A stretch of 32,000 nt of DNA from Candidatus Iainarchaeum sp. GTDB lineage: Archaea; Iainarchaeota; Iainarchaeia; Iainarchaeales; CSSED10-239. A program made the position numbers and the translations under genes. Of this stretch, positions 172 through 6,100 are shown one piece after another (the first letter of the stretch is position 1; every line of letters begins with the position of its first letter). The stretch spans positions 1 to 32,000 of the forward strand of contig CALBUD010000033.1 in the NCBI GenBank assembly GCA_937968065.1, read 5' to 3'. The notes under the pieces were generated by a model. The model saw nothing but the letters and a program-made list of their open reading frames with translations. It made no database searches and was not told the DNA's origin.

Positions 172-3100
172 TTAATCACATCTTAAAGAATCAGAAGCTG
201 GTTCAATAAAACTAGAATTATTTGAATATATTTCTGTTGGGTTATAGAAAAACTCAGAGGTTTTTCCATCAACAGAATTAACCACACAAATCTTATTTTC
301 AGAAACCATATCAAATACTTTTTTAATAGAGTTTATCTCAAGATTATTTCCTTGAGAAGAAGAGGAACCTAAAGATATATTTGAAGAATAATTATTACCT
401 GTTGTTGAAAATTTAACATTTACACCTTGACTTGATCTATCTTCAAGTGTATATATACTATTTTCTGGAGTGTAAAAGATTGTTCTAAGATAAACTTTTC
501 CAGTTCTTATAACTTGTGGCCAATCAAGAACAAATGTTGATTGAGGTCCTTCTGTTCCAGAATATCTATCATAATAAACCATATTAAACATATTGTTTCC
601 AGAAAAATCACATCCAGAACCAACACCAGTCCATCTTAAAAGAGAAGTTGAATCAACTAAGGTGTTATCTGATGAATCTTTTAATCTATAATAAACATTT
701 AAAGGATTTGTGTTTCTTGTTTCAACTTCCATTAAAACAGGAATTGCTTTACTTGGACTAAATATTAAATCAATTATGTTTTCTTGATATTTAACAGATA
801 AAACATTTCCTCTACTTTCAATTGAAGAATTAATCTTATAAATATCATTTGTTTTTGTAATATTTACTGTTCTTAAAGCGTTTGAACCATAATCAGGTGT
901 TGTTACAACATTTTCTTCATCAATTCTTATAGTATCTCCAGTATATGTAACTCCATACCCTTGTCTATTATACCCTGAAGTTGTTTGTCCTACAAAACCA
1001 TTAAATGGAAGTCTATAAAAAACACTATCTGTTTCTGGAGAAGAAATAAAACCAAAGGTTACAAATGCTTCAGCATCAATTTCTCCATTTCTTTCAAAAT
1101 TCCAAGAACTATTTTCAAATAAGAAATCTATTTTTATTCTATATTTTCCTGGAACATTAATATTTACATTATTTGTTTCATCTGAATATTGTTTTATAAA
1201 TAATAAATTATTTTTGAAAAGTTTAGATAAATAACCATTATTAAAGGTGGTTGGAGATGACATTATTGAAGAAGAACCTATTTGAGAACCATCTTCTCTT
1301 GAAGCAAGACCACCATATGCAGCATCAAAATCATTTATAAAATTATTATTATATTTATCTGTTATTAAATAAACTTCAAACTCTAAAAGTTCTTTTAATC
1401 TTAAAATATCTTGTTCTGTCCATTGAGAAACAACATTATCAGGATACATCTCTTTATTAAACCACATATCAAGATAACTAATTCCATTTTCTTTAACAGT
1501 TGTTGCTGGAACTAAACAATCAGAAGTTTGAGATTGCTCATAAATATCAAGTGAAACTAAAGAACTAAAACTATTATTAAAAGGATCACTATCCTCTCCA
1601 GAATAGATGATTGATAAAGAAAGATTTTCTCCAAGGATTGGAGTTGTTTCATAAAATTCTAAAATAACTTCTGTTGTGGTATCTCCTGAAGTTTGTTTTA
1701 GTTCAATTGGTATACTTGAAAGATTTCCTGTAATTTCTGTTAATTCATCTGTTGAAAAATCTCTAACATATGCTTTCTTTGGTAGTTTATTATCAAGACT
1801 TGCTGCTAAGTTTCCATTTTTATTATTTCCTGTTCTATTATCTAAAGATATTTTAACAATTAATTTTTCTTCAGAAGTTAAAATACTTACTTGATCAATT
1901 CCTGTTCTTGAAGCTGAAACATTATAATCTGCATTATATGGTTGTGCATCTTTAATATAATATGAACCAATTAAAGATTGACTTGCTAAAGATTCTGAAC
2001 TTATAGGACAAGAAACTGGTTTTGAAGCTATTAGTTCTTGTGCTTTATTAATTCTATTTAAAACAACTTGTGTTAATTGAGTTGCATCACAATAGTTTTC
2101 AGAACATTTATCTATATCTTCTAAAGACCAAGACCAATCAAGAGAGATGTTTGGAACAGCACCCTCTCCAGTTTTTCCAATCTTTCCTGTGTCTGTAACA
2201 CAATCAAGAAGAGTTAAATCATAGTTTGGAGTTTCTTCTGGTTTTGATATAAAATATGCAAATCTAAATTTTCCTATATTTTCTGTATTTTTAAAAGCAG
2301 GATCTTGCATATCTATAGAATCATCTAATGTTGGATTAAAATCTATTGTTTTAAAGAAATATTTTTTTGAATTATTATTTATTTGTGTATAAAAATCATC
2401 AGAAAGATTAAATTGTAAAGGTTTTATACCTGCTTGTTCAGGCCAGATAACTTCATCTGCTCTACAGGTATATCTAAAGTCTGTTTCAAGTTCTATTTTG
2501 TTTCTAGTTGGTTTTGAACCATAACACTCGATTGTGTGTGAAAGTTTTCCATCTTCAATAATTGGTTCAAAGATACCACTACAGTTTTGGTTTTTAATTA
2601 TTTGTGCATCAAACTTATCAAAAATAAATCCTGGTTGGTTACATAAAGTATAGTTTGATAAAGAAAGATTAGCATTCTTTGTAAGTTTATTTTTTGATGC
2701 AGGGTCTGTCATGGTTATAAGATCATGGTAGGTTATATATCTTGAACCTGTAATATCAAAAATATTTATATAAGAGGTGCTTTCTGAAACATCATTTATT
2801 TGTATAATCTTTGTTTTTTCATGATTTGGTTTTGTATGTTTTTGTTCAATATCTAAAAATCTATTAACTATTAAAGGATATTCAAACTCATTTTTCCAAC
2901 TAGTTGCAGCCCAAGAAACTAAAGCCCCAACTCCAATAGCTGCCCAACCATAAGGCCCAATTCCTGCAAGAGCTGTGTAGATGGCAGTTGAACCTAAAGC
3001 GGTTCCAGCTGTTCCTGCAGCTGCTGCAGCAGCTGCTGTTGCTGCACTAACACCAATAGCTCCACTATAAACACCAATTGCAAGTGTTGAGGTTGTTAAA

Positions 3101-6100
3101 ATTCCTCCAACCCAAGGAACCCACCCAACATCTTCATCAATAACTGTTATATATGAAAGATCTCCAAGAGCTTTAAAATTCATTTTTTTAAAAGATTCAT
3201 CATTTCTATTAAAATTACTTGATAAATATTCTACAAAAGTTGAGTTTTCAGAAGAAACAGCATTAACTGTTCTATAAGATAGATCCTCTTGACTTGTAGG
3301 AATCTCTTTAACATAATCCCATGGATTTTTTTCTGTATTATTATTATATAATCTTTTTATTTCAGAAACTTTATTTTCAGAAATTTCAATAAATGGATCT
3401 TCCATCCATAAACCTGTTTCATCTTTTGCATTTATTTTTAAGATTGAAAATGAAGAAGTTATTGTTCTTCCAAAATTATTTTTAACAGAAATTAAATTAT
3501 TAAGATAATAAGCACCAGGTGCTGTTTTTGAATCTTTTCTTTTTATAGAAACAGTTTTTTCAGAATCATTTAAAGAAAATCTTAAAATATTTCTTTCTTC
3601 AATTCCTTCTATGATTAAATCTCTACATCCATAATCATCACCATCACAAAGATTCATCTCAAAGGTTGCTTTTCCAACACATTCGTTTTTAATAGTTAGT
3701 TCTTTAGAGGAAAGATTTTCTAAAACAAATAATCCTCCTTGATTTATTTTTCTTCCAGAATCATAATAAGAGAAACAATCTGTAAGATTCATAACAGAGA
3801 TATTTGTTTTTAATAATAAATCATTTGGTGATTTATTAACATATACAGCTCCCTCTTCAGTTTCAACTTCAGCATTAAAATAAATATTTGTTTTAATATC
3901 TGCAAACTTTATACCATTGGTGTTATAAGTTATCTCTAAGGTATACTCTTCTTCAGGTCTTATTTCACTTACAACTGTTCTATAGTAGTTTTCTGATAGT
4001 TGCACTTGATTTCCAGAACCTGGACCAATAACTCTTAAGAAATAAACACCATATCTATCTGCTTCTGAAACTATTTTTGCTTGTAGATTTTTAATTGATA
4101 TAGGAGTTCTTCCTTCTTTTGAAAGACATGTGTTTTTAATACTTAGAGAGGTTGTTTGACTTGTTGTTGAAACAACAGTTGTCCATTCTCCAAGACCACC
4201 AGTAACAACTAAACAATCATCTGCAAACACACCTGTTCCAACAGATAATTTAAGATTTACTGGAATATTAAATAAATAATCATAGTTATTTAAAGAAACT
4301 GTTCCTGTTAAAGAACCTATGATATTCTCACTAACAGGATGTGTTCTTGCACTCTCTGAGGGTGCAAACTTAACTGTCATTTCTCTTGTTTGGTTTGCAG
4401 GTATTGTAAATCCAGATTGTATCTGGTTATTTATATAATTTTTAGTTTGTGCAAGGTTTAATAAATAAGATTTATTAAAAGAAATATCAATATCATTTAT
4501 TTCTTTTAAAGTTAATGGATATTCTGTTTTGTTTTCTAAAGTCAAAGTATATAACTCTCCATCAATATCGTTTTTATGAATAAATGCTTGAAGAGGAGAA
4601 TCACTTGTTATTTTTTGAGAGTTGTGTAAAATATCAATAATATCTTTTGTTACTGTAAACTCAACAGGCTCTGCATAATATTTAGATTTTGTAGCTTCAA
4701 TTACAAAGGTTTCATTATTTCTTAAAGCAGGAAGAGAAATATTTGCTTTTCCTTCTCTGTTTGTTTTTCTACCTGTTGATATTGTTAAGTATTCATTATT
4801 TATTTTTTGTAAAACATTTATATTTGCACCTTCTATTAAACCTCCTTGACTATCTTTAACAATAACTGTTAAAATAAAAGGAACTGAAGGTATTATGTTT
4901 CTTGGTTCATAATCAATAACCATAGTGTCAATCTCTGTTGTTGAAAAGTTAATAGGTAAGGTGTAGATAACTTCATTGTCAGAGACAAGTCTTGTGACTA
5001 ATTTTGACTGTCCAAGAATTAATGGAAACAATCCTAAATTAAAACCAATTTCTGAAAAAGGAGAAAGATTTTCTTTTAAAAGCTCTGGAGTGTTAAAAGG
5101 AATATTAAAATTATTTTCTCCAATTGGTGTTTCTCCAATAGATGAAAACTCACCAAAGATTTCATAATTTTTAATGTTTACCATAGATGTAGGATTATCA
5201 TCTTTATTTAAGTTTTTAACAGAAAGTCTTGAAGATGGATAGTTGTTTGAAGAGGAGTTTGTGATTATATATTCAAGAATATAATCTGAGTTAACTTTTA
5301 AAGGTACAAGATTATTTTCTTTAATATCATATCTTAACCCTTCTAAAACATCCACATACTGTCCTGAAAAACAAAAAGTATCATTACATAAACTTTTAGC
5401 ATCCACAAAATACTGAAGTTGTGTAAAATTATTTCCTAAAAGATTAATATTTCCTTGAGAGGATGCATAAAAGAAAGAAACAAGATCATTTGTTTTAGCA
5501 TTCTTTATTCTTATAGGAATATATATCTCATGTGTTGATGCTGGAAAATTATTTACTTGTATGTTTACAAGTTTTGATTCTAAAAAATTACCTGATTCTG
5601 TAAAAGGTTCTTTCTCATAATAGATAGAAGTTCCTAAAGTACTATTTTCAGGCATTATAAAAACAATATCTTCTTTAACATCTTCATAACTACCAGCTCT
5701 TAAAGCAAAATTAAAACCTGTTGAAGAGGGTGGCATAATAACTTTAAATCTTAAATAAAAGACTTCATTATTTTTTAAAGATTCAACCTTTTGTTCTAAA
5801 GCATTATAAAGACCAAGATATTCAACAACTGTATCTTGTGCTTGACTTGCTCTTTCTAAAACAATTTCTTTTGTAACAGTTTTGTTTTTATAGATTCTAA
5901 AAACATCTGTAAAATATGGAAGATAACCATCAGTTTCAATAAGAACATATACTCTCTTATCTGCTTTTATATCTTTAGATATTCGTCCAATATTTGTTGC
6001 AATATCAGTTCCAAGCAATTCACCTGATTCAGAATAAAAAGTAACTAATGAATTTGAAACAACATCATCTGTTTTATTTTTAATTGAAAGATTTACAGTT

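Follow-up and report, generated by a model that had tools for sequence, protein, structure and literature searches.

Helical hairpins that stop translocation and then start it again are known from the polyproteins of enveloped viruses: the transmembrane pairs TM1-TM2 of flavivirus prM-E-NS1, and those of alphavirus E2-6K-E1, are stop-transfer/internal-signal hairpins of this kind. Here we describe a candidate for such an element in a stretch of 32,000 nucleotides from the archaeon Candidatus Iainarchaeum sp. (assembly GCA_937968065.1, contig CALBUD010000033.1, positions 1 to 32,000), called the window below. In this window the minus-strand open reading frame (ORF) A encodes a giant protein, in which an uncharged Gly/Ala-rich hydrophobic segment (positions 2896-3126) separates a long stalk from a C-terminal module, M. 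The segment is most likely a membrane hairpin within the chain, rich in Gly and Ala, facultative and tunable, and the giant DPANN surface proteins to which it belongs form a family not characterised so far. In the window it may well take the form of a marginally hydrophobic two-helix hairpin that passes the membrane twice.

By analogy, the stop-transfer/signal hairpin of virus polyproteins would be the nearest functional analogue. In both cases two short helices rich in small residues are joined by a tight turn between two non-cytoplasmic ectodomains, and the first helix would anchor the upstream domain while the second restarts translocation of the downstream one. However, A is a cellular archaeal protein for which no evidence of signal-peptidase cleavage was found, and its element is facultative, far more Gly/Ala-rich and, in relatives, can carry an insert of 100-300 amino acids (aa) in the turn. 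The class I fusion peptides (HIV-1 gp41, influenza HA2, paramyxovirus F) are likewise uncharged and Gly/Ala-rich, and the marginal hydrophobicity of the window copy is a further likeness. Those peptides consist of 16-25 residues with an N-terminus made by cleavage and are followed by heptad-repeat coiled coils, whereas the element of A is 50-80 residues long, internal, built of two helices with a Pro turn, and followed by beta-rich domains.

Other known proteins share some of these features. Glycine-zipper transmembrane motifs (the hairpin of the ATP-synthase c-subunit, the N-terminus of VacA, MscL) have the dense Gly/Ala/Ser spacing at i, i+4 and the hairpin shape in common with the segment, but the window copy holds only two strict GxxxG motifs, there is no evidence of a ring or channel, and A is a surface protein of 2,492 aa. 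In toxins (the colicin pore domain, TH8-TH9 of diphtheria toxin, TcdB) an apolar hairpin is also internal to a large exported protein; there it is shielded in an amphipathic alpha-helical domain, while none is predicted around the segment of A, where prediction confidence is low. These comparisons, like the one with virus polyproteins, draw on established knowledge. For module M the nearest folds are MSCRAMM-type/Ig-array adhesins (FnBPA, ClfB, SdrG) and phage host-specificity or tail-fibre proteins. The adhesins resemble A in having a stalk of beta-sandwich repeats and a beta-rich head, which in M carries hypervariable cassettes. They differ in lacking a hydrophobic hairpin inside the chain and in being fixed at one end only, and M shares no sequence similarity with them and scores below 0.4 in TM-score.

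The first-pass annotation of this DNA had described the segment as 77 uncharged, Gly/Ala-rich, hydrophobic residues between two ectodomains. This description holds in both parts: the minus-strand translation of 2896-3126 gives exactly these 77 residues, aa 1509-1585 of A, with the stalk upstream and M downstream. Counting V1508, the run free of D, E, K, R and H is 78 residues long, and the runner-up in A has 27. The length is far beyond chance, as the analytic expectation for such a charge-free run in A is 1.4e-6, and the longest run in 2,000 shuffles of A had a mean of 26.7 and a maximum of 61 residues. Ala makes up 27.3% of the segment and 3.1% of the remainder of A; the corresponding figures for Gly are 18.2% and 5.0%. 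Around the segment the GC content is 45-53%, compared with ~27% otherwise in the window.

The features of A are listed here by position, with related proteins and loci given as P and L numbers, hydrophobicity as the Kyte-Doolittle value of a 19-residue window (KD19), and model confidence as the predicted local distance difference test score (pLDDT):

172..7650, minus: ORF A, 2,492 aa; N-terminal tail and signal-anchor, ~1,380-aa beta-sandwich stalk, hydrophobic hairpin, module M

7561..7650, minus: cytoplasmic N-terminal tail of A (aa 1-30), with invariant alignment columns

7480..7560, minus: N-terminal signal-anchor transmembrane helix of A (aa 31-57), KD19 2.88

3331..7479, minus: stalk, or N-part ectodomain (aa 58-1440), paralogous to C and D; Pfam CarboxypepD_reg, SpaA and Big_1, and blastp matches of A with C and with D

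2431..3330, minus: hypervariable cassette HV1 (aa ~1441-1740), which holds the hairpin; from the comparison of P0002 with P0005

3049..3126, minus: putative helix 1 of the hairpin (aa 1509-1534), GWVPWVGGILTTSTLAIGVYSGAIGV, with a Trp-rich start and hydrophobic core 1

2953..3048, minus: inter-helix loop (aa 1535-1566), Ala/Gly/Thr-rich, overlapping the GCW repeat

3006..3046, minus: imperfect GCW/CTG trinucleotide repeat that codes for a poly-Ala tract (Tandem Repeats Finder)

2896..2952, minus: putative helix 2 of the hairpin (aa 1567-1585), PYGWAAIGVGALVSWAATSW, Pro-led, with hydrophobic core 2

175..2895, minus: module M (aa 1586-2492; conserved core aa 1804-2487), beta-rich, with invariant Cys residues, adhesin-like

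1531..2010, minus: hypervariable cassette HV2 (aa ~1881-2040), a folded beta domain with pLDDT 70-90, whose allelic types co-vary with those of HV1

The copy of the segment in the window is marginally hydrophobic. Its best 19-residue windows reach 1.53 and 1.48, well below the signal-anchor of the same protein, and Hessa-type insertion sums give +3.5 and +4.5 kcal/mol (all such sums in this text are crude). Small-xxx-small patterns, with Gly, Ala or Ser at i and i+4, are over-represented and found at 17 of 73 positions. By inspection of the sequence, Trp and Tyr are gathered at the helix ends (GWVPW, PYGW and SWAATSW). With 45% Gly plus Ala the composition is of the fusion-peptide type, but the segment extends over 77 residues and has two cores and a loop. 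The repeat in this loop has period 3 and 10.3 copies, periods of 9 and 12 being reported too, and ~12-15 residues of the loop are gapped in the alignment to P0002 and P0003. We read the poly-Ala centre as a probable lineage-specific expansion of the inter-helix turn, driven by slippage of the repeat.

The relatives of A belong to Iainarchaeota/Diapherotrites (DPANN); Ca. Forterrea multitransposorum, whose genome is closed (CP045477.1), is among them. The full-length orthologs have best-BLAST identities of 33-63%, and the majority cover 99-100% of the query. The hydrophobic element is present in six of the eight close orthologs and also in L004 and L005. Every ortholog that bears it has two hydrophobic cores, as does the window copy, and core 1 has its counterpart in P0002, P0003, P0005, P0006, P0008, L004 and L005; core 2 opens with Pro (P-x-(W)-G-W). 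This fits the even number of membrane passes that had been proposed from the window alone. The junction between helix 2 and M comes in two types: SWAATSW-KNEF in A of the window, P0002, P0003 and P0011/L005, identical in these orthologs, and AP[ST]F-x-x-DYD in P0005, P0006, L004 and P0008. The orthologs exceed the window copy in hydrophobicity: KD19 reaches 2.1-2.4 (P0002, P0005, P0006, L004, L005), and insertion sums are -0.8 to +2.5 kcal/mol. The earlier concern that the segment might be missing from orthologs applies to two of them: P0004 and P0007 lack it, so it is dispensable.

The element is also found far beyond these orthologs. A profile of M matched 704 cluster representatives at E <= 0.001, and the best 150 matches are mostly proteins of 2,300-2,600 aa with M at the C-terminus. 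The family was gathered with the neighbouring ORF B, a paralog of the C-terminal part of A, as query, followed by an exhaustive profile search; aa 1440-2492 of A as query returned only two proteins, perhaps since the low-complexity segment filled the word-based candidate list. The large members considered are the 113 gathered proteins that reach at least 1,800 aa and carry M C-terminally. The N-terminal signal-anchor is conserved in 108 of these, and 63 have an internal hydrophobic segment (KD19 >= 1.6), nearly all at one position, with 58 segments located 100-330 aa ahead of the M core. Charge and composition statistics were calculated on these 58 segments at KD >= 1.6, which have a median length of 52.5 aa. 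About half of the large members have a Gly/Ala-rich element of 35-70 residues at the same position and with acidic flanks.

Gly plus Ala account for 34% of the 58 segments and for 16% of the N-terminal anchors of the same proteins, and the small-xxx-small density is 0.19 in the former and 0.04 in the latter. The Gly/Ala-rich character of the window copy is thus conserved well past the close orthologs. Pro occurs in the central half of 44 of the 58 segments, and two adjacent hydrophobic peaks are the commonest pattern (44 of 113 proteins). The flanks are net acidic, with 95 K/R and 145 D/E upstream and 58 K/R and 203 D/E downstream, as would be expected if both ends were outside the cell. Many relatives have helices with KD values of 2.5-3.1, and in most relatives the hydrophobicity is of transmembrane grade. 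Further, in P0105, P0106, P0136, P0154, P0163 and P0084 the two helices are 100-300 aa apart, and the inserts are either Ala/Ser/Gln-rich and helical or Cys-rich and acidic. Lys follows directly after helix 1 and at times precedes helix 2 in these proteins, which fits a cytoplasmic loop. The poly-Ala loop of the window copy looks like a miniature of the Ala-rich type of insert.

Eight relatives (P0043, P0066, P0070, P0080, P0093, P0101, P0133 and P0134) carry W/F-C-P-x-C exactly at the turn and an acidic motif, DPC..THPL.DY, right after helix 2; DPC itself occurs in many segments. The CPxC and DPC motifs could give the element a redox function or a disulfide. Pfam has no match for M or for the hydrophobic segment, literature searches gave no description of the M family or of the hairpin, and no relatives were found on IMG/VR contigs.

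M must be extracellular: a signal peptide is present in every B-like paralog, many Cys residues of M are invariant, and a signal-anchor precedes the stalk. By inference, stalk and M are on the same outer side of the membrane. In the model that we favour, A would be exported N-terminus first, behind its signal-anchor. Once the stalk of ~1,450 residues is across the membrane, helix 1 (aa ~1509-1534) would act as stop-transfer and the Pro-led helix 2 (aa ~1567-1585) would restart translocation. As an outcome, stalk and M would both be outside, with helix 2 tethering M to the producer's own membrane. The sequences themselves show the anatomy of the segment, its conservation, its position and the paralogy; we infer that the segment would be integrated in a membrane, that this would be the membrane of the producer and that the chain would stay uncut. 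The small residues (Gly, Ala, Ser and Thr, with their small-xxx-small spacing) would allow tight helix packing within the hairpin and perhaps between copies of it. Further, the element is facultative and fast-evolving. At one end of its range it is amphipathic and would not be in the membrane (B, P0004, P0007), in the window it is marginal, and in Forterrea, as in many distant relatives, it is strongly hydrophobic. A hypervariable sequence in which hydrophobicity is maintained is typical of a generic membrane anchor.

Several observations weigh against the two-pass hairpin. At KD 1.5, and with the positive insertion sums given above, the window copy might pass through the translocon. A looped stalk with an adhesin-like head held at its own membrane is an awkward geometry, and in hairpin-less orthologs of ~60% identity (P0004 compared with P0006) the head would be at the end of the stalk. 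The Gly plus Ala content, twice that of the anchors, suggests a role beyond anchoring. Compact inter-helix loops are almost charge-free, which makes the positive-inside rule uninformative there, and a minority of relatives have a single detectable hydrophobic helix or arms of ~15 residues, a misfit for a clean two-pass model.

The hairpin is located in a part of A that varies strongly between strains. Outside two blocks, P0002 and P0005 agree in 97-100% of their residues; the blocks are HV1, with 20-37% identity, and HV2, with 22-33%. Between these two strains the C-terminal core is 99% identical and both cassettes only 30-34%. Across strains, where the identity of the C-terminal core is 61-74%, the two cassettes group alike: A of the window with P0002, P0003 and P0011, P0006 with P0004, and P0005 by itself. 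On sequence grounds, such linked cassettes would imply that cassettes are exchanged or that the head is under strong diversifying selection. The hairpin itself appears to be inside a recombining, fast-evolving cassette, in which its sequence drifts while the apolar character is maintained. P0004, without a hairpin, and P0006, with one, are of the same cassette type, meaning that the element can come or go quickly.

Structure prediction is of limited help for the segment. In the AlphaFold2 (AF2) model of aa 1440-2492 the mean pLDDT is 64, and the segment is unstructured (pLDDT 22-30) and not packed against M; its sole helix, aa 1569-1584, has low pLDDT. M (aa 1586-2492) is predicted as mainly beta domains with pLDDT 70-90 and a longest helix of 21 residues. 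Foldseek matches of M are weak, with very low TM-scores: against the PDB the N2N3 domains of FnBPA come first (probability 0.97), then ClfB, SdrG, CBM9 and integrin alpha, and against viral structures (BFVD) tail-fibre and host-specificity proteins, including protein J. Neither set of matches includes a fusogen of any class. The model contains no heptad or long helical region after the segment, and no helical shielding domain around it, the flanks being disordered or beta at low confidence.

The origin of the hairpin can be approached through the paralogs of A. All large ORFs of the window are on the minus strand (E, the pilin-like P, D, C, B and A), and A, C and D have a common build of N-terminal tail, signal-anchor and a long beta-sandwich array of CarboxypepD_reg/SpaA/Big_1 type. 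Residues 2090-2475 of A match 542-936 of B with 28% identity (blastp, E 6e-38), and the N-terminus of B is signal-peptide-like, which bears out the proposal that M is a paralog of a secreted protein. In size A is close to C plus B (1,603 + 962 = 2,565 aa vs 2,492 aa). Roughly, A is a fusion-type paralog of the adjoining C (stalk) and B (signal peptide and M). The features concerned are:

7673..10561, minus: ORF B, 962 aa; signal peptide, amphipathic helix-turn-helix and module M; stand-alone paralog of the C-terminal part of A

10322..10444, minus: aa 40-80 of B; amphipathic helix, GLNP turn and conserved Gly-rich helix, the proposed counterpart of the A hairpin

10645..15456, minus: ORF C, 1,603 aa; stand-alone paralog of the N-part of A

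10966..11037, minus: aa 1474-1497 of C, AASFFRDGLYTGVISGILQGKLFG; weakly hydrophobic helix near the position of helix 1 of A

B-like proteins have a signal peptide, a linker of 25-60 aa and then, ~220 aa ahead of the M core, a strongly conserved helix, K(V/I)FGLNP(I/V)VHG(V/L)LAGAFSA(I/F)NTF, a motif found in 17 of them. In B of the window this helix is FGLNPIVHGVLAGAFSAINTF, located downstream of the signal peptide and with an amphipathic helix ahead of it. AF2 predicts helices at 40-57 and 61-80, separated by the GLNP turn, with low pLDDT; the first 289 residues of B have no confident structure. With a hidden Markov model (HMM) of the B motif, the top matches come from large relatives that lack the hairpin and fall at -145 to -202 from the M core, which is the position of the hairpin; individually the matches are weak (E 0.0015-0.07), and their placement is consistent. 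Homology of helix 2 with the B helix is argued from this positional test and from inspection of the motif. A profile-profile comparison of the junction region of A with the N-termini of B matched only the start of the M core and gave no match to the hairpin. In global MAFFT alignments G58, G65 and G69 seemed nearly invariant; this was an artefact, as these alignments scatter the B N-terminus across the stalk of A.

The two elements differ in character. The helices of B are amphipathic, with hydrophobic moments (muH) of 0.42 and 0.32, while those of A are uniformly apolar (muH ~0.1, mean hydrophobicity H 0.6). P0004 and P0007 share the amphipathic form of the element with B, and most A-type proteins have the apolar one. 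Since B has its own helix-turn-helix downstream of the signal peptide, the junction between the A and B architectures would lie upstream of the hairpin, and the hairpin would be the N-terminal element of M. The idea that the hairpin is a fossil of the B signal peptide was discarded, for the same reason and because the profile-profile comparison gave no link. The first-pass annotation had noticed that B looks like A cut at the segment: the correspondence of A to C plus B stands, but the signal peptide of B is not the counterpart of helix 2. It had also seen degenerate remnants of the segment in the paralogs. For B this does not fit, as its motif is better conserved in sequence than the A hairpin, and D matches neither the M-core HMM nor M in BLAST searches; the same is true of E. 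The weak helix of C corresponds to helix 1 of A by position only, with no statistical support.

Among the alternatives, processing as in a polyprotein is unlikely but compatible with membrane insertion. Helix 2 of the inserted hairpin would serve as an internal signal peptide, with signal peptidase I cutting at its end, and M would be freed as a B-like chain while the stalk is left anchored at both ends. The likeness of A to C plus B speaks for this, with B being exactly a signal peptide plus M, and so do the four type-1 sequences, in which SWAATSW-KNEF is identical despite being in the most variable region of the protein. Read from the sequence, VSWA/ATSW is a formally acceptable -3/-1 site, and signal peptidase is known to cleave the comparable hairpins in the polyproteins of flaviviruses and alphaviruses. 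However, the match at -3/-1 is uninformative because small residues are so common in the segment, and type-2 junctions end in AP[ST]F and then Phe, with no conserved small pair at -1/-3. Further, the lack of homology between the B signal peptide and helix 2 argues against processing, as do the hairpin-like helices of B, which persist after its cleavage site.

We regard it as similarly doubtful that the segment stays out of the membrane altogether, either as an extracellular packing or oligomerisation element, such as a small-residue bundle of A chains or of A with its paralogs, or as a tolerated low-complexity linker. Its position in the least conserved and lowest-pLDDT part of A would agree with this, together with the slippage-prone GCW repeat at its centre and the fact that it can be lost. 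In B and C, semi-hydrophobic Gly-rich helices at the matching ends could pair in trans and so hold B on C, a use of the same surfaces outside the membrane. Against this stands the maintenance of 50-80 uncharged hydrophobic residues across very divergent proteins; in a genome of 27% GC, where Ala and Gly codons are costly, keeping such a stretch points to selection rather than drift. At KD 2.5-3.0, 50-70 exposed apolar residues would also be unlikely to evade the membrane after Sec export.

Less probable still is insertion into the membrane of a partner cell, in which the hairpin, fusion-peptide-like or pore-forming, would escape its own membrane, ride on the tip of the stalk and enter the host membrane on contact. 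The composition is like that of fusion peptides and glycine-zipper pore formers, both in Gly plus Ala content and in small-xxx-small density over the family. The central Pro would fit as well, and the arrangement of CPxC at the turn with DPC just after it in eight relatives recalls disulfide-flanked internal fusion loops. The window copy is only marginally hydrophobic, and its site, with the stalk on one side and on the other a head that has two linked hypervariable cassettes, is what would be expected of a partner-recognition tip; the geometry would be the same whether or not an ortholog has the hairpin. Iainarchaeota such as Ca. Forterrea have no lipid and nucleotide synthesis and are predicted symbionts that need both from a host, on which they are thought to depend via "large extracellular proteins" (PMC5905446). 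How DPANN archaea attach to host membranes and bridge them, including the molecular basis of the bridges, is unknown (PMC11329633).

However, the helices of many relatives, at KD 2.5-3.1, are expected to be integrated by the Sec translocon, the element is absent from P0004, P0007 and about half of the family, and no relatives are found on viral contigs. A hairpin topology would also leave M outside the target cell, with no delivery function evident. For the analogy with class I fusion peptides, which the first-pass annotation had drawn, the likeness in composition stands, while the heptad or coiled-coil machinery is missing after the segment, and M is beta-rich with weak adhesin- and tail-fibre-like matches and no fusogen fold. 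In its most far-reaching version, which we consider very improbable, the hairpin and the two linked cassettes would be the business end of a DPANN host-attachment protein, with the head recognising a specific surface of the host and the hairpin entering the host membrane as a wedge, pore or fusion initiator.

An assembly or gene-calling artefact that joins C-like and B-like genes through low-complexity sequence can be dismissed, even if the architecture equals C plus B and the junction is odd in composition, since fused A-type proteins of 2,392-2,505 aa are found in at least eight independent assemblies from different projects, including the closed Forterrea chromosome, and in every such assembly the fused gene adjoins separate C-like and B-like genes. 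The 113 representatives of at least 1,800 aa that end in M speak against an artefact as well.

The surrounding locus is conserved too: the gene order C-like, B-like, A-like is retained in five loci. Downstream of the A-like gene in L001, L002, L004 and L005 there is a protein of ~760-816 aa with an N-terminal signal or anchor, and also one of ~2,070-2,150 aa with a hydrophobic segment at aa ~70-215. In Forterrea six ORFs of the kind found in this cluster occupy 28.7 kb of the 840-kb genome. The locus search chose its patterns automatically from the 2,492-aa alignment, and both conserved ones, WQNFLTK.. and RIPIKKIT, came from the N-terminal tail of A; a related motif, YKI[TV]D..KK, is found ahead of the anchor in C (N-terminus at 15367-15456) and D (22395-22514). 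A conserved motif in this tail suggests a dedicated cytoplasmic partner or sorting machinery.

Some features of the neighbouring genes are worth recording. The tail of C (10645-11100, minus) has a semi-hydrophobic helix, then a predicted coiled coil and then an acidic (PEDET)n repeat; across genomes C-like proteins range from 1,329 to 1,867 aa, with tails that differ greatly in length and content. D contains at aa ~1303-1396 (~18325-18610, minus) a charge-free, Q/N/Y/G-rich, prion-like low-complexity tract of 65 and 28 residues, which is a second type of long uncharged segment in the gene cluster. E (24532-32000, minus) has no in-frame stop up to the edge of the window, and its N-terminus is outside. 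It has its own Gly/Ala/Cys-rich hydrophobic block, listed at aa ~1901-1964 and containing CALC and ACGIP, and after it come a linker of Thr and Pro, a coiled coil rich in Lys and another hydrophobic block, GLIRGLGCGILGNVAG, which is weak. P (22719-24395, minus), of 558 aa, starts with a pilin-like class III signal, MFNQKGF/NLFTAMIALMLVSITIVFIY, and has no match in a Pfam search; its place amid the giant genes may mean that the cluster includes a type IV pilus-like assembly component. A tRNA scan of the window gave no hits.

What emerges is a large, unannotated family of 704 representatives with members of ~2,400 residues and no Pfam model for M. Its proteins combine a stalk with a head, and at a fixed position they may have the hydrophobic Gly/Ala-rich hairpin. 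The head contains the two linked hypervariable cassettes, which differ by swapping even where strains are otherwise 99% identical. The family offers a rare case of a putative membrane-spanning element that is gained, lost and tuned inside one protein family. Read conservatively, the hairpin would give these proteins a second membrane anchor. If instead it does enter the membrane of a partner, this would bear directly on the long-standing question of how DPANN archaea make contact with their hosts, and the family of some 700 members would be a candidate for the machinery of DPANN-host membrane contact or of cytoplasmic bridges.

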